From contig OZ241875.1 in NCBI GenBank assembly GCA_965203325.1, forward strand, positions 1-64,000: a DNA stretch of 64,000 bases. Reading direction: 5' to 3'. Below, piece after piece: positions 420-64,000 of this stretch; position 1 is the stretch's first letter; every line of letters starts with the position of its first letter. The notes under the pieces were generated by a model. That model was not told the DNA's origin. It did not search any database and saw only the letters and a program-made list of their open reading frames with translations. The translations under genes were made by a program, and so were the position numbers. Source of the DNA: a bacterium. GTDB taxonomy: Bacteria; UBA8248.

Positions 420-1456
420 AGGTCAGGAAAATCCCCATTGCCAACATTTACTACCTCCTTTGCTACGCTTGGGACCACGTCGAAGAGCGGGATGTGGTGC
501 GGCTGGAAGAATTGGAAGGACTGGATAGAGTACACGACCTCTTGGCCAAGGTACTGGCCAAGGGCACTTTCCGGTTGCTCCGCAGGGGCATCGAGCGCGG
601 CTACCGAGAGATGCGCGAGGACCTTGCCGGGATCCGCGGAAAGATCGCCGTGGCAGAGACGGTGAAACGGGCGTTACGCGCCCGTGGTCAGGTGACTTGT
701 GACTTCGAGGAACTGTCCCACGATGTGCTGCACAACCGGATCCTGCGCTCCACGCTGAGATCACTTCTCAGGCTCACGGACTTGAATTCGAACGTGCGCG
801 CCGAAGTCCGAAGCGCCTACACGAAGCTCGATGGCGTAAGCGTAGTGCCCCTGAACCGGCGGGTGTTCCAGCAGGTTTATATCGACCGTAACCGGCGATA
901 CTATCGATTTCTTTTATCCGTGTGCAGGCTTATCCATGAGCAGTTGCTTGTCGATGAGCGCTCCGGGGAGGCCACGTTCACCGATCTTAGCGAAGAGCGG
1001 ATGGAAAGATTGTACGAGGACTTCATCATCGAGTTCTATCGCCGAGAGCAGGACCATTACCGGGTCAACCATCGCGGGCGCACTATCGTGTGGGTGGACG
1101 ATGGCACGCCCGACCACCAGCGCTCGAAGCTTCCGCGCATGGAAGCCGATGTTATTCTCGAAGCGCCGGGTCGCCGGATCATCATGGATGCCAAGTATTA
1201 CCAAGAGGCCCTAGGCGGTCGTTACGGCGGGAAACTGCATTCGAACAATCTCTACCAGCTCCTTGCCTACTTGAGAAATCGCGAGGCTACCGAAGCGCCG
1301 GGACCCAGGCACGAAGGGATCCTGCTCTACCCGACAGTCGACTCGCCTGTGGCGATCGATGTCCACCTGGAAGGCTTCCCGGTCCGTGCCCGGAGCATCG
1401 ATCTTGCCCAGGATTGGCGCAACATCCATAACCAAATGCTGGCCTTGATCGAGTAA
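416..1456 (+). CDS. mcrC: McrC-family modification-dependent restriction endonuclease subunit
   Basis: N-terminal IPIANIYYLLCYAW. PD-(D/E)xK core MEADVIL..IMDAKYY, plus NLYQLLAY and GILLYP. Coupled to mcrB. Confidence 0.92.
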   Translation: MKVRKIPIANIYYLLCYAWDHVEERDVVRLEELEGLDRVHDLLAKVLAKGTFRLLRRGIERGYREMREDLAGIRGKIAVAETVKRALRARGQVTCDFEELSHDVLHNRILRSTLRSLLRLTDLNSNVRAEVRSAYTKLDGVSVVPLNRRVFQQVYIDRNRRYYRFLLSVCRLIHEQLLVDERSGEATFTDLSEERMERLYEDFIIEFYRREQDHYRVNHRGRTIVWVDDGTPDHQRSKLPRMEADVILEAPGRRIIMDAKYYQEALGGRYGGKLHSNNLYQLLAYLRNREATEAPGPRHEGILLYPTVDSPVAIDVHLEGFPVRARSIDLAQDWRNIHNQMLALIE

Positions 1457-1628
1457 TTGAATTGTATTTCATCTGAGCGTTGTCGTTGGCATGCGCAATA
1501 ACAACTGCCAAAAACCACACCTCTGTAGCAGAGTTAAATACTTATATTGCCTATGTCGTCTGCCCATCTCTGATATGACTAGGGACGCTCTCAGATTCGC
1601 TTCTACCTAAATTTCTGAATCCGCGCTC

Positions 1629-2981
1629 TCACCCCCCCGGACGCTCGACGGTCTCGCCGTACCCCGCACGTCCGGTCACCTCGCCGTCTTCCATCACGAC
1701 TTCGCCGCGCACGAGCGTCATCACGGGCGCGCCCTTCATCGTCCAGCCGTCGAACGGCGTCCACTTGCACTTGGATACGATGTCCTCATCGCGCAGCGTC
1801 TCCTCTAAGTCCATGTCCACGACGATGAAGTCTGCATCCGCGCCCACCTGGATGCACCCCTTGCGGGGATGGATGTTGAAGACGCGCGCGGGCTGCTCGC
1901 AGCAGATGCGCACCATCTGGTTCAGGGTCAGGACGCCCTCGTTCACGGCGTTCAGCATCAGGCGCACCGTCGTCTCCACGCCCGGTATCCCGAAGGGCGC
2001 GTCGTGGATGTTCTCGAGGCCGTCCACCTTCCGCTGGCGGGGGAAGGGGCAGTGGTCGGTGCCGATGGTGTCCACCATGTCGCGTCCCAGGGCTACGCGC
2101 ATCCCGTCGCGCGTCTCCGCCGAGCGGATGACCGGCGTGAATTTCACGAACGGCCCCAGCTCTTCCAGATGCGAATGGTCGAGATAGAAATACTGGGGGC
2201 AGCTTTCGGCGAAGATTCTCGCGCCGCGCCCACGCGCAGCCTGGATGGCATCGAGCAGTACGGGCTGGCTCACGTGCGCCACCAGTACCTTGCAACCCGT
2301 GAGTTCGGCAAGCGCCACGGCGTCCAGCGTCGCCACGTACTCGCTCTCGGGGTTTCGCCAGTCGCTGATGCACATGTAGTCCGTCCGGTTATCGGCGTCT
2401 ATTTTTTCTTTCGATTTCCTGAGGATGGAGTCGCTCTCGCAGTGCAGCATCACCGTGCCGCCGAAGGAATTGACCTCGTGCATGATGTTGAGCAGCACCC
2501 CCTCGGACAGGTCGGGCACGCCGTGGAGCTCGCACATGAAGCCCTTGAAGCCCAGCGCGCCGCCCTCCCACATGGGGTGCAAGTGCTCCAGATTATCGAC
2601 GTCCAAGCCCCCGAGTTGGCCGAAATCCACCACCGAGCGCGAGTCGATGTAGGCCGTCTTGTCCTCTAGGATTTCCCGCGTGTAGACGAGCGGGTCGCTC
2701 CGGTGGTGGTCGATCACGGTGGTGATGCCGCCCCTGGCCGCCGCCTCGGTGCCCGTCGTCCAGTCCTCCCGGTCCGTGAAGCCCGGGTCCATCATGTGGA
2801 CGTGCTCATCCACCATGCCCGGCAGGAGATGGCGGCCCGCGGCGTCTATCTCTCTCGCCGCTCCCGTCTCGGCCTTATGGGTGATGGCGGCGATCCGCCC
2901 CCCCTCCACATAGACGCAGCCCTCGTAGGTGTCCGTGGGCGTCACGATTTTCGCGTTCTTGATCAAAAGCTCGGCGCTCAT
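1629..2981 (-). CDS. Cyclic amidohydrolase (dihydroorotase/allantoinase/hydantoinase family)
   Basis: Metal ligands DEHVH, FKGFM (Lys), LHCE, AHVS and GTDHCP. Also G.IQVGADADF and SKCKWTPFDG. Confidence 0.88.
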   Translation of the reverse strand: MSAELLIKNAKIVTPTDTYEGCVYVEGGRIAAITHKAETGAAREIDAAGRHLLPGMVDEHVHMMDPGFTDREDWTTGTEAAARGGITTVIDHHRSDPLVYTREILEDKTAYIDSRSVVDFGQLGGLDVDNLEHLHPMWEGGALGFKGFMCELHGVPDLSEGVLLNIMHEVNSFGGTVMLHCESDSILRKSKEKIDADNRTDYMCISDWRNPESEYVATLDAVALAELTGCKVLVAHVSQPVLLDAIQAARGRGARIFAESCPQYFYLDHSHLEELGPFVKFTPVIRSAETRDGMRVALGRDMVDTIGTDHCPFPRQRKVDGLENIHDAPFGIPGVETTVRLMLNAVNEGVLTLNQMVRICCEQPARVFNIHPRKGCIQVGADADFIVVDMDLEETLRDEDIVSKCKWTPFDGWTMKGAPVMTLVRGEVVMEDGEVTGRAGYGETVERPGG

Positions 2982-3182
2982 GCGGTTGCCCTCTTATGAT
3001 TGGCGATTCGGCATCAAACTTCGCGTGGTTCGAGAATGCAGGCATTATGACGCATAAGAGCGTTGAGCGGAAGAAGCGAGGAATTCTCAAATCGGATTTC
3101 TTGCTTTGTTTGGTCGTGATATTTTGGCAGCTGCGCCCAAAATGACAAAATGATTATCGCCAGCAATCAGGGAGGTTCTGGT

Positions 3183-4277
3183 TTGACCAAGAAATATGAA
3201 GGAAGAAAAATAGTCTTAATTTTAGGTGCGGGTTGTACCCGCAGCGAAGGAACTAGAGAAAAAAAACCTCCATTAGACAAGAATTTTTTTACAGAATCCC
3301 GCCGAACAAACAAAGAGGAAGTGGAGCCCATACGAGAGTATTTTTTAGACAATTATAATTTTGATATTTGTGATAACGAGCGGGGATATGATTCACTCGA
3401 AGATGTGATGGTGAGGTTGTTCGCAGATTCCAATGATACGTCGATGAAACAAATTGCGTATAAAAATTTCTTGAATCTTATAAAATTGTTTAATAGAAGG
3501 TTGGCGCACACTACGAACGAGATAAAACCTCACCCAAGGTCAAATTTATTTAGGATAATAGTTAGTTTTTTGAATGATGGCGCAAAACCAAAAGATTTAT
3601 CCATCATTACATTTAACCAAGATATTCAAATAGAAAAGACTCTGAACTCTATCGAGAAAATTGGAAAATATCAAAAATTTGGGCCGCTTTTGAATTTTCC
3701 ATATTGCTATAGGGTATCTCATAATCGTGAAATGTCTGCTACAAAACCAAAGGGTTCCACAGATACATTTGCTGAAGGGAAATCTAAAGATAAAGGAATT
3801 CAAATCCTGAAATTACACGGCTCCTTAAATTGGTATTCTGTTCATAAGTCGCCAAATGTAGGAGCAAACACATTGTTTAAGCGTGATAAAAAATTGCGTT
3901 ATACATCAAGAAAAACAATTCATTCAGAAATGAAATATATGGGTGGCAAAAGACGCCAATACACATTTCCAATAATTGTTCCACCAGTTCCCCACAAATC
4001 TGCAATATTTAACATAGGAATACCTCCTTTATGGGCCGAGGCATCAAAAAGGCTAAAAAATGCGACTGATGTTGTTGTATTCGGATATTCTTGCCCAGAA
4101 ATGGACTATGAGAGTTCAAATTTAATCCAAAAAACTCTTGGTTCTAAAAAATTAGAAACATTCTCGATCATAGATATATCTCCAGAGGTTATTCCTAGAT
4201 TTTGGGAACTTACAAGAAAAGAGCGGATTTTCTATTATTCTAGTGCCGATGCATACATAAATTCGAACCAAGAATAA
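3183..4277 (+). CDS. Stand-alone SIR2-like (SIR2_2) domain protein, AT-rich
   Basis: Motifs ILGAG, IITFNQD, LKLHGSLNW, IVPP and VVFGYS. Start set at TTG 3183 after GGAGG (ORF track start 3150). Spot count 15/60 GC at 3541-3600. Confidence 0.8.
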   Translation: MTKKYEGRKIVLILGAGCTRSEGTREKKPPLDKNFFTESRRTNKEEVEPIREYFLDNYNFDICDNERGYDSLEDVMVRLFADSNDTSMKQIAYKNFLNLIKLFNRRLAHTTNEIKPHPRSNLFRIIVSFLNDGAKPKDLSIITFNQDIQIEKTLNSIEKIGKYQKFGPLLNFPYCYRVSHNREMSATKPKGSTDTFAEGKSKDKGIQILKLHGSLNWYSVHKSPNVGANTLFKRDKKLRYTSRKTIHSEMKYMGGKRRQYTFPIIVPPVPHKSAIFNIGIPPLWAEASKRLKNATDVVVFGYSCPEMDYESSNLIQKTLGSKKLETFSIIDISPEVIPRFWELTRKERIFYYSSADAYINSNQE

Positions 4278-56624: not shown

Positions 56625-59309
56625 ATGTCCCCTCCTAAAGGCACCCTGCAAGCCAGGAAAGAAAAAAATACATCCGGCAAAAGTAACCCTGGCCCTTCTC
56701 CTGCGATGCGCCAATATCTGGAAATGAAAAGACGCTACCCGGACGCGATACTGTTTTTCCAGTTGGGTGATTTTTTCGAAATGTTCTATGAAGACGCGAA
56801 ACTCGGGGCGAAAGTGTTGGAACTCGCGTTAACATCGCGCCAGAGTGATGACAAGGGACCTATCCCGATGTGTGGTGTGCCTTGTCATTCGGCCTCCTCC
56901 TATTGTGGGCGATTGCTGGAAGCGGGCTACAAAGTCGCCATATGTGAGCAGGTGGAAGACGCAAGAGAAAGTAAGGGAGTTGTAAAACGTGAGGTAACTC
57001 GAGTCCTGACCCCAGGCACTTCGATTGCCGACCTCGAGTTGCTTGATAGCAAGGAATCTCAATACTTGGCGGGGATCACCGTATCGGCCAGAGAAGGAGA
57101 GACGCTTTGGGGAATGGCATGGCTCGATAGTTCGACCGGTGAGTTTTGTGCAACGCAGGTGGAAGGCGATGCTGCCGAGACGCTGATTTATAATCAATTG
57201 GAGAGGCTCTCTCCTCGCGAACTTATTTTCCCGGATGCATTTTCCCCTCCAGATGGGTTGAAAAACAAAATTGATGAGCTAAGCATTCATGTTGAAAAAA
57301 GACCGGACGCCACTTTTTGTGAGTCACTTGATGCCAAAAGCCTGGGTCCCGCATTTGCGGATGAAGCGAATGTTCTGGCGTATCCGGTAGCAGCAGATTC
57401 CGCCGTAGGTGTTTTAACGTATCTCAAAGAAAACCAGCCTGGAGATTTTCCCCATCTCAAGCCTGTCTTTTTCTCTAGACTCTCAGACTCCATGATTCTC
57501 GATACAGCCACGTTGCGAAATTTGGAAATTACCCGTTCGGCAGTGGATCGGGGGAAACGGGGCACTCTGTTCGGTTTGCTGGATGAAACGTCAACGGGTA
57601 TGGGGGGACGGCTGCTGAAAAAATGGGTGCTTTCACCATTGATTCAAAAAAAAGCCATCGAATATCGCGCCGAATCAGTAGAAGAACTCGTGAACAATTC
57701 CGAAATCCTGAATAGACTCAAAAAAACCCTTGAACCTATTCAAGATATCGAGCGGCTTCTCGGACGCGTGGGTTCTCAGACTGCGAATGCCCGAGATATA
57801 GCTGGCCTGGGCGGATCTTTGGCCATATTGCCGGAAGTTTATGAGGCGCTCGAAGGGATGGCTTCTGAATTGTTTTGTTCCGTCCGGTCGGGCTGGGATT
57901 CACTCGAGGACGTAGCGTTGGAACTGAAGAACGCGATTGTAGATGACCCGCCCGTTTCCATTCGAGAAGGTGGAATATTTCGAACTGATTACGACCCGGA
58001 ACTTGCCCGCCTGAGAAAGGCGCAGCAGGAGGGTGATTCGTGGCTCAAGAATTACGAAAGCGGGGAAAAAGAACGAACGGGGCTGCCTCTGAAAATCGGG
58101 TTCAACCGCGTTTTTGGATATTATCTGGAGATTCCCAAACGCTTCAGTGAGCAGGCGCCGATGGAATATACGCGCAAGCAGACCCTCGTTTCTGCCGAGC
58201 GATACATCACTTCCGAGTTGAAAAAGATGGAAGAAGACCTACTCGGCGCGGAGGAAAAAGCCCATCACCTCGAGTTCATGCTTTTCGGGCGCTTAAGAAC
58301 GCAAATATCTCAACACGCCAAGCGAATACTTGCCGCCGCCGAGAGGATAGCGATTCTGGATGCCGTTTTGTCCATGGCACTCGTTGCGCGCAAATTCGGA
58401 TATGTCAGACCCCGAATTATGGATTCTACCGATCTGGAAATCATGGAGGGGAGGCATCCCGTCATAGAGGCGGAGAATCCTGGTCTCTCTTTCGTGCCGA
58501 ACGATTTGTCGATCCGTGACGACCGCCGAATACTCATTATCACAGGGCCGAATATGGCCGGTAAATCCACTTACCTGCGCCAAACGGCACTCATCATTCT
58601 AATGGCGCAGATTGGCAGTTTCGTACCAGCCAAGAGCGCGAAAATCGGTTTGGTTGACAGGGTGTTCACTCGCGTTGGTGCGCATGACCGACTTTTGGAG
58701 GGGCAAAGCACCTTCATGGTGGAGATGGTGGAAACGGCCACCATATTAAGAGAGTCGACCCGGAAGAGTTTCATCGTCCTGGACGAGGTCGGGCGAGGTA
58801 CGAGCACCTATGATGGCGTCAGCATTGCATGGTCAATTGTTGAGTATCTTCATAACAAGGTCCAGCACAGGGCGAGGACTTTGTTTGCGACCCATTATCA
58901 TGAGTTGGCCGAACTCTCAAAAGAGCTCGCTTGCGTGAAAAACTTGACGGTCGAGGTCCGGGAGTGGGGCGATGAAATCGTTTTCTTGCGAAAAGTAACC
59001 GATGGCAGTTGCGATAGAAGCTACGGCATTCAGGTAGGCAGGCTGGCGGGACTTCCGGAAGAGGTTATCGACCGAGCCAAGACGTTGCTCTCCAGATTTG
59101 AGAGTACGGAGACGACCTCTCGTTCCAGCGACGAAAAATCCAATCTGGAAAATCGCTGGGACAATGGGCAATTGCCTTTGTTTTCAGGAACAGAATCGAA
59201 AATTGAAAATTTGTTGAAAAGCATCGATCCGGATTCCATGACACCTCGCCAAGCTCTCGAAACCCTGTATGAACTCAGGGAAATCATGGCAAACGTTGAG
59301 CAGCGATAA
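56625..59309 (+). CDS. mutS: DNA mismatch repair protein MutS
   Basis: GDFFEMF, ITGPNMAGKST, STFMVEM, DEVGRGTST, FATHYHEL and SYGIQV. Confidence 0.97.
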   Translation: MSPPKGTLQARKEKNTSGKSNPGPSPAMRQYLEMKRRYPDAILFFQLGDFFEMFYEDAKLGAKVLELALTSRQSDDKGPIPMCGVPCHSASSYCGRLLEAGYKVAICEQVEDARESKGVVKREVTRVLTPGTSIADLELLDSKESQYLAGITVSAREGETLWGMAWLDSSTGEFCATQVEGDAAETLIYNQLERLSPRELIFPDAFSPPDGLKNKIDELSIHVEKRPDATFCESLDAKSLGPAFADEANVLAYPVAADSAVGVLTYLKENQPGDFPHLKPVFFSRLSDSMILDTATLRNLEITRSAVDRGKRGTLFGLLDETSTGMGGRLLKKWVLSPLIQKKAIEYRAESVEELVNNSEILNRLKKTLEPIQDIERLLGRVGSQTANARDIAGLGGSLAILPEVYEALEGMASELFCSVRSGWDSLEDVALELKNAIVDDPPVSIREGGIFRTDYDPELARLRKAQQEGDSWLKNYESGEKERTGLPLKIGFNRVFGYYLEIPKRFSEQAPMEYTRKQTLVSAERYITSELKKMEEDLLGAEEKAHHLEFMLFGRLRTQISQHAKRILAAAERIAILDAVLSMALVARKFGYVRPRIMDSTDLEIMEGRHPVIEAENPGLSFVPNDLSIRDDRRILIITGPNMAGKSTYLRQTALIILMAQIGSFVPAKSAKIGLVDRVFTRVGAHDRLLEGQSTFMVEMVETATILRESTRKSFIVLDEVGRGTSTYDGVSIAWSIVEYLHNKVQHRARTLFATHYHELAELSKELACVKNLTVEVREWGDEIVFLRKVTDGSCDRSYGIQVGRLAGLPEEVIDRAKTLLSRFESTETTSRSSDEKSNLENRWDNGQLPLFSGTESKIENLLKSIDPDSMTPRQALETLYELREIMANVEQR

Positions 59310-59436
59310 CAGCAGGGCCAGGTCGCAGCGCATAATCCGGAAGTGCTTCACGGACATGAAGCCAGGGAAGTCAAACAAGGTATTGAGAGCTTTTTTCATA
59401 TGCGATAGCATTGAATTTCAAGGCCAAGGGGAGCAT

Positions 59437-60042
59437 ATGTTATCTAACGCCCGGAAAACATTTGTTCTTAGGAAACTTGCCATAGCCATCTGTATGATTT
59501 TCGCTTTGGCGGGACCGGCGATTTCCGCAACAGATAGCCAAGATGGAATTCGGATAAAAGATATTATTGTTATCAAGAAGAATGGGCGGTTGCTTGTTTT
59601 TGGTTCTCTTTTGGGTGCATTTTCGCCGAAATTGTTGGAAGCTATTCATAGCGGTGTAACGACGAAGTTCATCTTTGACGTAAGTCTCTTGCGCACTCGC
59701 AAGCTGATTTATGATTTGGAAGTCACCTCGCGGCAATTACATCACCAAGTGAAATATAGCGCCTTGAAAAAAACATACACTTTTCATCTCAAAGAAGGGG
59801 AAAAAGAGATCGAGAGAAAAGTGACGAAAAGCCAAGGCGAAATGACGGACTGGATGCGCGAGCTGAATGGCGCGCCCATTGTCCCTGGCAAGGTCTTGCC
59901 CCCAAATAGTCGATACTATGTCAAAATCAGAGCGCGGATGAATCATGTTGATTTTGTTTTTCCCTTTAATTACTTGCTTGCTTTTTGGGGGAAGCAGTCT
60001 GATTGGAGCTATTCCCAGACATTTAGTTCTGAAGGAATGTGA
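59437..60042 (+). CDS. DUF4390-like exported protein
   Basis: Signal peptide and L.EAIHSGV...F.F motif. Conserved position upstream of ntrY-like kinases. GGGGAG RBS. Confidence 0.72.
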   Translation: MLSNARKTFVLRKLAIAICMIFALAGPAISATDSQDGIRIKDIIVIKKNGRLLVFGSLLGAFSPKLLEAIHSGVTTKFIFDVSLLRTRKLIYDLEVTSRQLHHQVKYSALKKTYTFHLKEGEKEIERKVTKSQGEMTDWMRELNGAPIVPGKVLPPNSRYYVKIRARMNHVDFVFPFNYLLAFWGKQSDWSYSQTFSSEGM

Positions 60043-60045
60043 ATT

Positions 60046-62307
60046 GTGCATCCAACGCGACTGAATCAGGAGATCTCTTCGCGCCGACGAAGAACACTTC
60101 TGCGATCCTTCATCGCTTTGATCATCATTGCGACTCTTTCGTTTACGGCTTGGATTTACTTCAAAGAGCTTGAGCCGGAAGTCCCACTGTTAAACAATGT
60201 TGTCGTATTTGCGCTAGTGAATCTGAGCATCATTCTGCTCATGGTGGTTATTCTCCTGGTAGCAAAGCACTTGGTGCGTCTTTACTACGAGGGGAGAACG
60301 GGTGCCGGTCGTTCACGCTTGCAATTAAAACTCGTATTGGCGTTTGTCGGATTTACGCTCATCCCTGTAGTGGCTCTTTTCGTGGTGGCCAGCGGTTTGA
60401 TTAACCAAAGTTTTAATGCTTTGTTCAACATGAACGTGGAGAGAGCGCTCAAAGGCTCTTTCGAGGTGGCTCAAACGTATTATCGCGAGGTGGAGCGAAA
60501 CACGCTGTTCAGCGCGAGTCGCCTTGCGCTGACGTTGGAGAAGACACGACCTGATATAATAACGAACTCCAAGGCGGCTGAAAAAACATTGGAGGCCGAG
60601 AGAAAGAACTTGGGGGTGGATTTCATCCAACTCTACGATAGGGAGCGGAAGGAGATCGTATCGGTCAGGCGCCCGGGGTTGGCGCAAGCCACAACGTTTT
60701 CGCCACTGGTGGGATACGTAGATCAAGTGATTGATGGGGAGTCGCGCTCAAGTATAGAGAATTGGGAAAAAGGAGATGTCATCTATGGCGTGGCGCCTTT
60801 GAAGAGTCAAAAAAAAGTGGTGGGGTTTATCGTCGTATCCAAATACGTGCCTGATCGACTTGTGGCGAAGATCAGAGGCATATCGGACTCCTTTGTGAAC
60901 TATAAAGAGTTGGAACTGTCCAAGAATCCAATCAAAGCAAACTACATCATTACTTTCTTGGTGGTTACTTTGCTCATTCTCTTTGCGGCCATCTGGTTCG
61001 GCTTCTACCTCGCTCGAGGGATTACGGTTCCCATTGAGAAATTGGCGGAAGCTACAAGGGCGGTGTCGGATGGCGACCTCGAACATCGCGTGGATGCGCA
61101 GGCAGATGGCGAAGTGGGGATTTTGGTCAACGCATTTAACAGCATGACGGAGGAATTGTTGGCCAACAAGGAAAAAATCGAAGAATCTTCTGAAATCTTG
61201 AGCCGTTCCAACCTGGAAATCGACAGAAGACGCAGGTATATGGAAGCGATGCTCGAAAATATCGGAGCGGGTGTAATATCAATCAATCGCCGAGGGCGCG
61301 TTACTATCCTCAACAAAGCAGCCGGGGAGTTGCTGAGGATTGAACCGCAGAATGCCGTAGGGCAAATGTTCAGCGAGGTTTTCGAAAGCACACATCTTGA
61401 GCCTGTTCGTCAGTTGATGCGCTCTATGCGAGCCCGAGAACACCAAAGCGCTTCGGAGCAAGTGGAGGTCATGATTGATGGCCGTGTGCTGACACTACGC
61501 GCGAGCTTGACTCTGCTGAAGAGCGCAGATGGCGGCAGACTTGGTGCCGTCATTGTGTTTGATGATATGACGGCTTTGATACGGGCTCAAAAAGTGGCCG
61601 CATGGCAGGAAGTGGCCCGTGGCATCGCGCACGAGATCAAAAATCCACTTACGCCGATTCAACTTTCTGCTCAGAGAATGAGACGAAAATTTGATAATGA
61701 GGCCTATGATTTTACCGAAGTATTTGAATCTTGCACGGATACTATTATCAATCAGGTAACAAGCCTGATTGATATGGTGGATGAATTCAGCCGATTCGCT
61801 CGCATGCCGGAGCCGAGATTGAGGCTCTGCGGGTTTGTCCCCCTCATTGAGGATGTTGCAAATTTATATCGTGGCAGGAAGGGGGATGTGAAATTTTCGA
61901 TTCATATCGATGTTGGGAATGCTGCTGTCATGGCGGATCCCGAGCAGTTGCAGCGCGTGTTTATCAATTTATTGGAAAATGCCTTTGAATCCCACGATGT
62001 CGAGGGCGAGATTGATTTGCAAGCGTGGAGTGATAAAGACAGAAATATGATAGTTGTTGAAGTTGCCGACCAGGGGCAAGGTATATCGGAAGATGTGAAA
62101 GGCCATATATTCTCGCCTTACTTTTCGACAAAGGATAGAGGCACCGGGTTGGGCTTGGCTATATGTCACCGCATTGTGGCGGATCACAATGGAACAATAG
62201 GCGTGCGAGATAACCATCCGTCTGGTTCCATTTTTCGCGTAACGTTGCCACTGGCGCCTGCTGTGGACATCACGCCCGAAAAGCAAAGGACGGCTTCCAT
62301 TGGATAA
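60046..62307 (+). CDS. ntrY: NtrY-like sensor histidine kinase (HAMP, PAS)
   Basis: TM segments, HAMP and PAS. AWQEVARGIAHEIKNPLTPIQLSA, EFSRFARMP, DQGQG and GTGLGL. Confidence 0.92.
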   Translation: MHPTRLNQEISSRRRRTLLRSFIALIIIATLSFTAWIYFKELEPEVPLLNNVVVFALVNLSIILLMVVILLVAKHLVRLYYEGRTGAGRSRLQLKLVLAFVGFTLIPVVALFVVASGLINQSFNALFNMNVERALKGSFEVAQTYYREVERNTLFSASRLALTLEKTRPDIITNSKAAEKTLEAERKNLGVDFIQLYDRERKEIVSVRRPGLAQATTFSPLVGYVDQVIDGESRSSIENWEKGDVIYGVAPLKSQKKVVGFIVVSKYVPDRLVAKIRGISDSFVNYKELELSKNPIKANYIITFLVVTLLILFAAIWFGFYLARGITVPIEKLAEATRAVSDGDLEHRVDAQADGEVGILVNAFNSMTEELLANKEKIEESSEILSRSNLEIDRRRRYMEAMLENIGAGVISINRRGRVTILNKAAGELLRIEPQNAVGQMFSEVFESTHLEPVRQLMRSMRAREHQSASEQVEVMIDGRVLTLRASLTLLKSADGGRLGAVIVFDDMTALIRAQKVAAWQEVARGIAHEIKNPLTPIQLSAQRMRRKFDNEAYDFTEVFESCTDTIINQVTSLIDMVDEFSRFARMPEPRLRLCGFVPLIEDVANLYRGRKGDVKFSIHIDVGNAAVMADPEQLQRVFINLLENAFESHDVEGEIDLQAWSDKDRNMIVVEVADQGQGISEDVKGHIFSPYFSTKDRGTGLGLAICHRIVADHNGTIGVRDNHPSGSIFRVTLPLAPAVDITPEKQRTASIG

Positions 62308-64000
62308 GGGCCATGTGCTTATCGTCGATGATGAGCGTGAAATACTCGTGAGCCTGGAAGATGTCTTGCTGGATGAAGGGTATCGCGTAGAACGGGCCGA
62401 GTCCGGAGAAACTGCTCTTCAGTTGGTCCGGACCGAAGCTCCCGATGTGGTTCTGGTTGATGTGTGGATGCCCGGCATTGATGGAATCAAGACTTTACAA
62501 GCAGTGAAAGAGTCCAACGCAGATATCGAAGTCGTCCTGATGTCGGGCCACGGCAATATTGAGACCGCAGTGGCCGCAACAAAGTCAGGCGCTTTTAATT
62601 TCATTGAAAAACCTCTATCCATTGATACGGTTTTGCGCATAGTCGATTCCGCCGTTCAAGCGCGAAGGGCCAAGGATATTAAGGCGAATAATGTTGGCGA
62701 CGTGATACTTGACGGTGCCAGCAAGCATGTTCAGAGGGTTCGAAGGGCAATCAGGAGAGCGGCGAAAGATATTGGGCCCTTGCTGATTGCAGGTGAAAGG
62801 GGAACCGGCAAGCGTTTTGTCGCAAGGGCGATCCACGAGAACGGCGCCGGAAAAGAAGAAGGCTTTCGGCCTGTTCATTGCCGTTCGCTGTTTCCAATGG
62901 CGGAGATAGGCGAATGGGAAGATGCCCTGGAGCGGCTGGTGCCCGATACCTTTCAAGGGACTATATATCTGGATGGTCTGGAACAGTTGCCCATGGCGGG
63001 GCGTGAAAAATTTCTTGTTCAATTTCTTGAGCGCATAGAGGATTCAAAGCGTTTAATCGTATCCGTTGATTACATAGGAACCCCAAAGGATAAGGCTTAC
63101 GTGCAAGCCTTATCTGATAAAATTGGCGCGGATGTAATACACTTGCCCCCTTTGCGCGAACGCAAAGGGGATATTTTGCCGTTAGCAAACAGATTCTTGA
63201 GTGAATGCGTTGAAGTTGGCGGGCATGAAAAGGAATTTCCTGAGGATGTCATTGCGGTTCTGGAAGACTATGACTGGCCGGGCAATATTGCTGAACTAAA
63301 AGGTGCAGTGACCAAAGCGGCATCCACATCGCAAGGATCGGAGATTCACATCGACCACTTGCCGGACACGATACGCGAGACTTCTGATTTCGAGGTGAGC
63401 ACCTCAAAAAATGATACCCCGTCCAATTTTAATGTGGCCAGAACGCAGTGGGAGAGACAGTACCTCGCCTTCCATCTGGAGGAGCACGGTTGGGATATCA
63501 ATAAGACCGCCAAGGCGGTGGGCATGACGAAACCTGCTTTAATGCGAAAAATTAAAACATACAATATAGAGCCCATATTGCCGGCGTCGACGACGCTAAG
63601 GGAATCAAATCAGAGGAGCATTTCGAAAAGTGTCGTATTGTATGGCCGGGGGCTTCACTCAGGGCTGAAAACCGGATTGATCATCGAGCCTCTGCCACCG
63701 GGGAGCGGGATACAATTCGGCAACCTGACAAGCCCCGATACTGTGAGGGCGAGTGTCGATTTCGTGGATGGCACCAACCATGCGACAAACTTGCGCAATG
63801 GGACTGTGACTGCTCGAACGATTGAGCATCTCATGAGCGCGCTGCACGCATACAAGATAAGCAATATACTCATCAAAATGAGTGAGGAAGTGCCCGTCAT
63901 GGATGGGTCGGCAGTGGAGTTTTGTCGCTTGCTTGAAGAAGCAGGCATTGAAGATCAGAAAGAAAAACGCGAGGACTTGTGGATTGATAAGGCATATGAG
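62300..64000 (+). CDS. Fusion of an NtrX-like response regulator (REC, degenerate AAA+, Fis-type HTH) and LpxC; runs off the 3' end
   Basis: Translated by hand: 567 codons with no stop from TTG 62300. Regulator part has VLIVDDE, VDVWMPGIDG, MSGHG, FIEKP, GERGTGK, LPPLRERKGDI, WPGNIAEL and an HTH. From 63611 it has QRSISKSV..GRGLHSG, TIEHLMSAL and EVPVMDGSA (LpxC). Confidence 0.9.
   Translation, partial: MDKGHVLIVDDEREILVSLEDVLLDEGYRVERAESGETALQLVRTEAPDVVLVDVWMPGIDGIKTLQAVKESNADIEVVLMSGHGNIETAVAATKSGAFNFIEKPLSIDTVLRIVDSAVQARRAKDIKANNVGDVILDGASKHVQRVRRAIRRAAKDIGPLLIAGERGTGKRFVARAIHENGAGKEEGFRPVHCRSLFPMAEIGEWEDALERLVPDTFQGTIYLDGLEQLPMAGREKFLVQFLERIEDSKRLIVSVDYIGTPKDKAYVQALSDKIGADVIHLPPLRERKGDILPLANRFLSECVEVGGHEKEFPEDVIAVLEDYDWPGNIAELKGAVTKAASTSQGSEIHIDHLPDTIRETSDFEVSTSKNDTPSNFNVARTQWERQYLAFHLEEHGWDINKTAKAVGMTKPALMRKIKTYNIEPILPASTTLRESNQRSISKSVVLYGRGLHSGLKTGLIIEPLPPGSGIQFGNLTSPDTVRASVDFVDGTNHATNLRNGTVTARTIEHLMSALHAYKISNILIKMSEEVPVMDGSAVEFCRLLEEAGIEDQKEKREDLWIDKAYE

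Follow-up and report, generated by a model that had tools for sequence, protein, structure and literature searches.

The fusion gene and its locus

We describe a gene in which an NtrX-like response regulator runs on, in one reading frame, into the lipid A enzyme LpxC. The gene lies at the end of a 64,000-nucleotide stretch of bacterial DNA, here called the window (GenBank assembly GCA_965203325.1, contig OZ241875.1, positions 1 to 64,000; GTDB lineage Bacteria; UBA8248), which forms the start of a 4.39-Mb genome assembled as one contig and 95.5% complete. The frame starts with a TTG codon at 62300, is still open where the window ends and reaches its stop codon at genome positions 64430-64432, so that the protein has 710 residues. 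The corresponding public gene calls have 705 residues and begin at a GTG five codons downstream of this TTG. The stop codon of the preceding kinase gene ntrY (62305-62307) overlaps the TTG start of the fusion by 8 nucleotides (nt), which suggests translational coupling of the two genes.

An earlier note, made from the letters of the window alone, had reported a frame that passes without interruption from a receiver domain through AAA+ and helix-turn-helix (HTH) regions into LpxC, downstream of genes for a DUF4390 protein and an NtrY-type sensor kinase. The genome contains the same frame with no stop inside it, the two upstream genes were recognized by their Pfam domains, and all the coordinates proposed for the phospho-acceptor motif, the LpxC N-terminus and the catalytic Glu-His pair agree with ours (Table 1).

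Table 1. Features of the fusion gene and of the two genes in front of it (window positions; residue numbers are those of the 710-residue protein; E, E-value).
Feature	Position	Strand	Details
NtrX-like::LpxC fusion gene	62300..64000	+	residues 1-567 inside the window; gene ends at genome position 64432
Receiver (REC) domain	62315..62641	+	residues 6-114; PF00072 Response_reg, E 2.1e-28
REC key residues	62459..62461 (D54)		D10, D11, D54 (in VDVWMP), S82, F101, K104
Degenerate AAA+ core and lid	62714..63394	+	residues 139-365; Pfam
Fis-type helix-turn-helix, HTH_8	63446..63562	+	residues 383-421; PF02954, E 3.8e-5, above the cut-off
Variable linker, HTH to LpxC	63563..63610	+	residues 422-437; no stop, no conserved start codon
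LpxC domain	63611..64000	+	residues 438-567 in the window, continuing to 710; catalytic E509-H510 at 63824-63829
LpxC residues H668, K669, D672, D676, H695			past the window end
DUF4390 (PlrP-like) protein gene	59269..60042	+	first gene of the module; PF14334, E 4.1e-26
NtrY-type sensor histidine kinase gene	60046..62307	+	753 residues; NtrY_N, HAMP, PAS, HisKA, HATPase_c (Pfam)

A single polypeptide with a complete LpxC

The fusion is one polypeptide and not an assembly error. Logan contigs from four sequencing runs of four different studies were compared with the segment 63200-64000; two of them span it whole and the other two reach across the junction, and for none of the four was an insertion or deletion over the segment reported. 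The frame is free of stops in relatives down to 40% identity, and the sequence of the linker varies freely while the reading frame holds. The earlier note had found neither a stop nor a clear ribosome-binding site with a start codon at the junction, and this observation stands. The only in-frame start-type codons near the junction of the window are an ATG and a TTG, 23 and 11 codons before the LpxC N-terminus respectively, neither of them preceded by a Shine-Dalgarno-like motif, and two of the runs, X4 and X9, have TCG in place of this TTG (63578-80). Among the 26 loci compared, no conserved internal start was found at the junction: in eight of them the interval from -25 to +7 codons around the LpxC N-terminus is free of ATG, GTG and TTG, and only three combine a start-type codon with a Shine-Dalgarno-like motif. 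An internal start from which LpxC would be made separately was rejected on these grounds for the window genome and for most of its relatives. In general, the signs that would speak against the fusion (a stop or separate start in reads or relatives, or a truncated LpxC accompanied by a stand-alone lpxC) were sought and none came out.

One member of the window's genus deviates from this picture. In locus L027 (G015:C19, about 1256-3794), which belongs to an 8-Mb assembly of 70 contigs, the coding sequence of the fusion breaks near LpxC residue 643 and continues in a second, overlapping frame. The break is a frameshift, and it reflects either a sequencing error or a pseudogene.

The LpxC half is complete. 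Read past the window end, it matches PF03331 without a stop over the full length of the domain (positions 1-267 of the 268 in the profile; 283.5 bits, cut-off 27; E 2.8e-84), it contains the HKxxD motif that had been expected downstream (H668, K669 and D672), and residues 430-710 align end to end with Pseudomonas aeruginosa LpxC (E 6e-47). The residues that bind zinc or take part in catalysis are E509 and H510 (the Glu-His pair), T622 and F623 (Thr-Phe), H668, K669 and D672 (HKxxD), D676 (the second Asp) and H695 (the C-terminal His), and all nine are identical to the P. aeruginosa residues. We also gathered 86 non-redundant fused proteins, filtered from 149 complete ones and comprising 35 long forms with the AAA+ and HTH middle and 51 short forms; the catalytic residues are kept in all 86, save that T622 is Thr in 85 and Ser in one. 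A predicted structure of the orthologue P0040, which is 80% identical in the LpxC domain, superposes on Aquifex aeolicus LpxC with a template modelling score of 0.94-0.95 and a root mean square deviation of 1.6 Å. In the AlphaFold2 model of the window protein the predicted local distance difference test (pLDDT) is mostly 84-98 over residues 440-710 and falls to about 65 near 630-640. A profile search of the genome found no LpxC other than the fused one, and lpxA and lpxB are present as well. Because it is the sole LpxC of a genome that also has lpxA and lpxB, the fused domain would, to judge from this gene content, be the working deacetylase.

The regulator half

The closest relative of known structure to residues 1-433 is NtrX of Brucella abortus (5m7n; E 1.9e-52, aligned over 5-421, including the C-terminal HTH). 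The receiver is intact, and its key residues hardly vary across the family: among the 86 non-redundant proteins D54 is kept in 84, K104 in 85, Ser or Thr at position 82 in all and an aromatic residue at position 101 in 84. The AAA+ module is in a different state. Its Walker A motif (GERGTGK, for GxxGxGK) is kept and its Walker B motif is DG, not DE. The Sigma54_activat match in the window part is weak and partial (residues 139-240, E 1e-10, profile positions 3-115 of 168) and is followed by AAA_lid_14 at residues 286-365. None of the 35 long forms has the DE of Walker B and none has a GAFTGA-like motif, compared with 40 and 19, respectively, of the 65 nearest stand-alone REC-AAA+ regulators, and about 19 residues of the GAFTGA/L1 loop region are deleted in the long forms. 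Since rpoN is present in the genome, the loss of the sigma54-activator motifs is specific to the fusion protein. The structural part of what the earlier note had proposed holds: the fusion is in frame, its LpxC is intact and there is no other lpxC. One detail has to be corrected, in that the AAA+ module, judged by the missing GAFTGA motif and the DG of Walker B, is not a functional sigma54 activator.

Selection acts unevenly along the protein. The ratio of non-synonymous to synonymous substitution (dN/dS) over 16 orthologues of the genus is lowest for the receiver (0.058) and LpxC (0.056), lies higher in the HTH (0.11), the lid (0.17) and the AAA+ core (0.20), and rises to 0.41 and 0.59 in the two inter-domain linkers, the higher value being that of the linker between HTH and LpxC. 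The receiver is therefore under the same purifying selection as the essential LpxC enzyme, and the AAA+ and HTH regions are still under purifying selection within the genus and are not junk.

The AlphaFold2 model of the window protein, built on an 86-row family alignment, has a mean pLDDT of 88.5 and a predicted template modelling score (pTM) of 0.56; confidence is low only at residues 364-375 and in the linker, where pLDDT drops below 50 at 427-432. The model of the short orthologue P0040 consists of confident domains and a disordered linker (mean pLDDT 89.6, pTM 0.75), and its pTM hints at a preferred arrangement of the domains. A complex prediction for the receiver (residues 1-132) and LpxC (433-710), with 86-row alignments and run without controls, gave scores of 0.11 and 0.08, the mark being 0.32, and speaks neither for binding nor against it.

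Distribution and reduction of the architecture

The fusion is the usual form of LpxC in the phylum. Of the 51 phylum genomes (G000 included), 49 match at E<=1e-60, and LpxC always lies in a longer frame, of 356-757 amino acids, the shortest of these frames being ended by contig ends. A fiftieth genome, G051, has a frame that begins with the receiver and that a contig end breaks off halfway through LpxC; in the fifty-first, G031, which is 93% complete, no LpxC was found. A stand-alone lpxC was seen in none of the 51. Public records call the fusion proteins either "UDP-3-O-acyl-N-acetylglucosamine deacetylase" or "NtrX", and the labels of these records include Nitrospinae/Nitrospinota, Nitrospina sp., Tectomicrobia and Thermodesulfobacteriota. 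Outside the phylum, genome G036 has a form of 731 amino acids as its only LpxC. With a distant long form as query, species-representative genomes yielded 56 further loci with the receiver (or the receiver and AAA+) and LpxC in one frame, two with AAA+ and LpxC only, and five with LpxC alone, three of which are ended by a contig end. The labels given by submitters were tallied for 57 loci, namely the 56 without L138 and L182 (LpxC alone), plus the two AAA+ and LpxC frames and L041: Binatia 14, "Deltaproteobacteria" 12, Thermodesulfobacteriota 11, Myxococcota 7 and a few others. One locus, L143, comes from a metagenome-assembled genome (MAG) labelled Mycobacterium sp. and has REC-LpxC on a 7.5-kb contig; because its protein groups with the short forms of Binatia and delta-proteobacteria, this label is probably a binning error. 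As for the habitat, the stretch 62900-64000 or a near-identical sequence occurs in sponge and marine metagenome runs of eight studies, and the bacterium probably belongs to the Nitrospinota and lives in association with sponges. No RNA run is among the 24 runs listed for the stretch.

The family is variable in its middle. The 268 proteins gathered comprise 97 with the receiver and LpxC, 75 with the receiver, AAA+ (HTH) and LpxC, nine with AAA+ and LpxC (mostly truncated), 20 with LpxC only and 67 with the receiver and AAA+ only. Among the 86 non-redundant members, the 51 short forms are without the full AAA+/HTH middle; most have lost both domains and a few retain an HTH remnant. Intermediates exist, some with the receiver, the AAA+ core and LpxC but no HTH, others with the receiver, an HTH remnant and LpxC. 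Within the window's own genus, G008 has a short form of 458 amino acids in which AAA+ and most of the HTH are deleted and the last HTH helix is left, and G023, of another genus, has a short form with a different breakpoint and no HTH remnant. The short forms still stand behind the DUF4390 and NtrY genes. Taking the loci of other genomes with enough upstream sequence to be evaluated, an NtrY homologue ends just 5' of the fusion in 46 of 53, and in 31 of these 46 the fusion is a complete short form, with LpxC as its sole output domain.

A FastTree phylogeny of 177 LpxC domains places one branch, with support 100, between 85 stand-alone LpxCs from many phyla and a group of 88 fused and four apparently stand-alone ones. 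Long and short forms are interleaved on this tree, and well-supported branches force at least 10 changes of the "short" label. Taken at face value, the tree would indicate a single origin of the fusion followed by many independent losses of the middle. It was computed with FastTree only and is unrooted, two long-branch warnings arose among the outgroup rows, and the sampling followed similarity to the queries; the outgroup consists of LpxCs from an alignment-based search for related loci, which are mostly stand-alone (77 of 79 frames). Eight positions mark the clade (T458, G459, H516, Y518, K526, C542, L648 and T657), their residues being shared by at least 85% of the fused and at most 15% of the 85 stand-alone LpxCs. 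Lys526 is the sharpest, with Glu or Asp in 68 of the 85 stand-alone enzymes. In P0001 the first five of these positions (458, 459, 516, 518 and 526) lie at window positions 63671-63877. Considered as a candidate docking surface, the eight residues do not discriminate, as the four apparent stand-alone members of the clade mostly keep them. A locus in the stand-alone clade deserves separate mention: L068 (3273-5444, from a MAG labelled Nitrospira sp.) has a receiver open reading frame (ORF) about 340 nt upstream of lpxC, and it may represent an unfused neighbourhood of regulator and lpxC.

Proposed control of LpxC by NtrY

In the short forms a receiver that has kept its kinase gene and its switch residues has only LpxC attached to it, and LpxC would, most simply, be its output. 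As far as the gathered sequences reach, the receiver, the enzyme and the kinase gene survive every reduction of the architecture. The suggestion in the earlier note that phosphorylation might tune the deacetylase is strengthened by the short forms standing behind ntrY, by the constraint on the receiver and by the near-invariant switch residues. We propose that the NtrY membrane kinase, probably modulated by the periplasmic DUF4390 protein, would set the phosphorylation state of D54 in the receiver, and that this state would gate catalysis by the LpxC joined to it. Most likely, the receiver would dock on the enzyme or release it across the flexible linker, in the manner of CheB, whose receiver docks on and releases its methylesterase. 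The dead AAA+ module and the HTH of the long forms may add oligomerisation or DNA binding and would be dispensable for the core REC-LpxC function. We infer the phosphotransfer from NtrY to the receiver, its effect on LpxC and the direction of this effect from gene linkage and conservation. That LpxC is under some form of NtrY-dependent control seems to us probable; direct gating of its catalysis by receiver phosphorylation is a tentative proposal, which we rate somewhat below that.

Several observations weigh against this proposal and should be considered together. The pTM values are only an indirect hint of how the domains pack. Because the linker is long, disordered (25-60 residues) and variable, rigid allosteric coupling across it would be unlikely. 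The eight clade residues may be a signature of the clade rather than a docking surface. Three LpxCs of 283-292 amino acids that begin with Met and a short N-terminus (P0163, P0181 and P0193) group with the fused proteins on the tree and may have arisen by secondary fission, which thus seems to be tolerated. An adjacent ntrY is missing in seven of the 53 evaluable loci and also in L019 and L041, and the NtrY orthologue of G036, 38% identical over 9-743, lies about 220 kb from the fusion on the same contig. The short-form locus L026 (G023:C34) has GGAGG and an in-frame GTG 12 codons before the LpxC domain, and LpxC could plausibly be translated separately there, at this sole locus among the 26. 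Finally, the AAA+ and HTH regions are under purifying selection in the genus, and the minimal REC-LpxC model therefore surely falls short of all that the long form does.

One could argue that phosphorylation sets the amount or the location of LpxC and not its chemistry, with the receiver acting as a built-in degron or adaptor, by analogy with the single-domain regulators CpdR and RssB, or as a tether at the membrane-bound NtrY. The comparative evidence on receiver, LpxC and NtrY fits this explanation equally well. The disordered linker fits docking, and it would fit phosphorylation-dependent turnover or localisation too, since its flexibility and variability are as compatible with a tethered adaptor as with a docking inhibitor. 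Proteolytic control is also a known logic for this enzyme, as the level of LpxC in Escherichia coli is controlled through proteolysis by FtsH and LapB, and a degron, adaptor or tether of this kind would stand in for that control. The LapB zinc ribbon PF18073 was not found in our genome; however, the same profile matched 10 of 14 control genomes, Gram-positives among them, so its absence says little, and the generic tetratricopeptide repeat profile PF13432 gave 40 unspecific matches in the genome when used for LapB. Against the explanation stands the locus itself, which has no linked protease or adaptor gene, its neighbours being mutS and purM. We consider control of amount or location unlikely in comparison with gating of the enzyme.

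It could also be that the linkage is passive, i.e. that the fusion only secures co-expression of LpxC with NtrYX or is a frozen accident, and that the receiver signals elsewhere, or to DNA through the HTH. The purifying selection on AAA+ and HTH (dN/dS 0.11-0.20) agrees with this, as the long form may act as a regulator of its own, and so do the apparent stand-alone LpxCs inside the fused clade. However, a neutral fusion should break often, given that one stop and one start suffice, yet the fusion is kept in 50 of the 51 phylum genomes and across groups labelled as several phyla. The repeated deletions took the middle and never the receiver, and in the short forms a receiver without any other output domain keeps its switch residues and, in 31 of them, its neighbouring kinase. 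Passive linkage is thus not likely either.

A third explanation treats LpxC as a trigger enzyme that senses its substrate or product and relays this to the HTH, so that the flux into lipid A sets transcription by the NtrX part. Only about 14 residues separate the HTH from LpxC in the window protein, and the HTH is conserved in the genus. Nevertheless, as 51 of the 86 members are without the full AAA+/HTH middle, this explanation cannot account for the receiver and LpxC staying together and could only be an added function of the long forms; we regard it as quite improbable. The possibility raised in the earlier note, that the state of the enzyme feeds back on DNA binding, falls with it as a core function, many members being without the HTH.

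The weakest alternative, that two genes were joined by an assembly or sequencing error or that LpxC is made from an internal start, can draw on the in-frame TTG of the window, on the well-placed Shine-Dalgarno motif and GTG of L026 and on the split gene of G015, and it is very hard to credit next to four runs without an indel (two of them covering the segment in one contig), a TTG that has no Shine-Dalgarno-like motif and is TCG in two runs, eight loci with no start-type codon and a frame that stays open down to 40% identity.

Comparison with known systems

The regulator half resembles Brucella abortus NtrX (5m7n/5m7o/5m7p) in the order REC-AAA+-HTH and in having no GAFTGA loop, and the position of the fusion gene directly behind ntrY is that of an NtrY/NtrX pair. 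In contrast to NtrX, which ends after the HTH, the fusion protein goes on for 273 residues as LpxC; moreover, Brucella NtrX keeps the DE of Walker B, whereas the fusion has DG and the L1-region deletion of about 19 residues. The LpxC half shares the fold, the catalytic set and the pathway position of the stand-alone enzymes (E. coli, and the P. aeruginosa and A. aeolicus structures). It differs from them by a signalling extension of 437 residues at its N-terminus and by forming a separate LpxC clade with residues of its own, e.g. K526. The build of receiver, flexible linker and enzyme recalls response regulators with enzymatic output (CheB, PleD/WspR and RpfG), which we use as a working analogy.

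The gene order of DUF4390, an ntrY-like kinase and an ntrX-like regulator is also that of the Bordetella PlrP-PlrS-PlrR system, a subset of NtrYX. Unlike in Bordetella, the upstream neighbour is mutS and not rsmB, and the regulator carries an enzyme. From genetic evidence, the Bordetella DUF4390 protein PlrP has been proposed to limit the action of PlrS, the NtrY homologue, as a phosphatase (PMC13001219, in its accessible part). The same part of that paper traces DUF4390 across proteobacteria only, and the terms LpxC, fused and lipid A do not occur in it.

A response regulator dedicated to lpxC is known as well. For DVU2934, a DNA-binding response regulator of Desulfovibrio vulgaris, lpxC is the one mapped target, according to the excerpts at hand (PMC3333781; also PMC4114195 and bioRxiv 10.1101/2021.11.05.467447). 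In Syntrophobacter fumaroxidans lpxC adjoins the operon orthologous to DVU2931/DVU2934, and proteolytic control of the LpxC level in E. coli is cited there too (both from the available part of PMC3333781). The likeness to our fusion lies in the dedication of a response regulator to lpxC; the difference is that D. vulgaris has two separate genes and controls lpxC at the level of transcription, the two systems being likened here by published description. By analogy, it is plausible that the DVU2934-lpxC arrangement represents an unfused precursor state. Deletion of ntrYX in Rhodobacter sphaeroides raises lpxC mRNA 8.8-fold and increases lipopolysaccharide (LPS), an effect described as indirect, with no NtrX site at lpxC (PMC7240162, in the portion consulted). 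In the accessible part of a Caulobacter preprint on ChvGI and NtrYX, a ChvI regulon is the only place where lpxC is listed. A full-text literature search that covered few subscription journals found no account of a protein in which a receiver or NtrX is joined to LpxC. The novelty is LpxC as the output of a response regulator.

LpxC is the control point of LPS synthesis, as it commits the cell to lipid A, and it has long been pursued as an antibiotic target. Its known regulation is by proteolysis in enterobacteria and by transcription in a few species; a receiver fused to the enzyme would, if it works as proposed, add a third mode of regulation that is far more direct than these two. NtrY/NtrX, whose signal and output are both poorly defined, would gain a tangible biochemical output, and two-component phosphorylation would for the first time be seen to act directly on an essential enzyme of lipid biosynthesis. 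An NtrX-type regulator has been joined to LpxC, probably its former target, in an ancient and widespread architecture, and the family records the stepwise whittling of a transcription factor down to a phospho-switch on that target. The short forms are a natural minimal REC-LpxC construct. It is also possible, and in our view only slightly less likely than gating itself, that REC-LpxC is the minimal form of a widespread envelope homeostat in which NtrY, facing the periplasm, and DUF4390 switch LpxC post-translationally through phosphorylation of its built-in receiver, and that this homeostat would replace FtsH/LapB proteolysis in Nitrospinota and in the groups labelled Binatia, Thermodesulfobacteriota and delta proteobacteria.

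Neighbouring genes

The order DUF4390, ntrY, fusion, purM is common to long and short forms within the phylum. NtrY orthologues stand directly upstream of the fusion in L016, L017, L018, L025 and L026, and a DUF4390 ORF occupies the same position in L016, L017, L025 and L026; in L018 it is mutS, not DUF4390, that lies upstream of ntrY. The longest DUF4390 ORF of the window overlaps the last 41 nt of mutS, which ends at 59309. Translation probably begins at an internal ATG (59437), behind which the protein opens with a hydrophobic stretch resembling a signal peptide; such a start would fit a periplasmic, PlrP-like protein. On the 3' side of the fusion, just past the window, there is a purM-like gene (L001:3685-4740), and the orthologous ORF of L025 contains AIR synthase domains. 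In 13 of the 16 loci listed, the fusion gene is followed on the same strand by ORFs of about 350 and about 220 amino acids.

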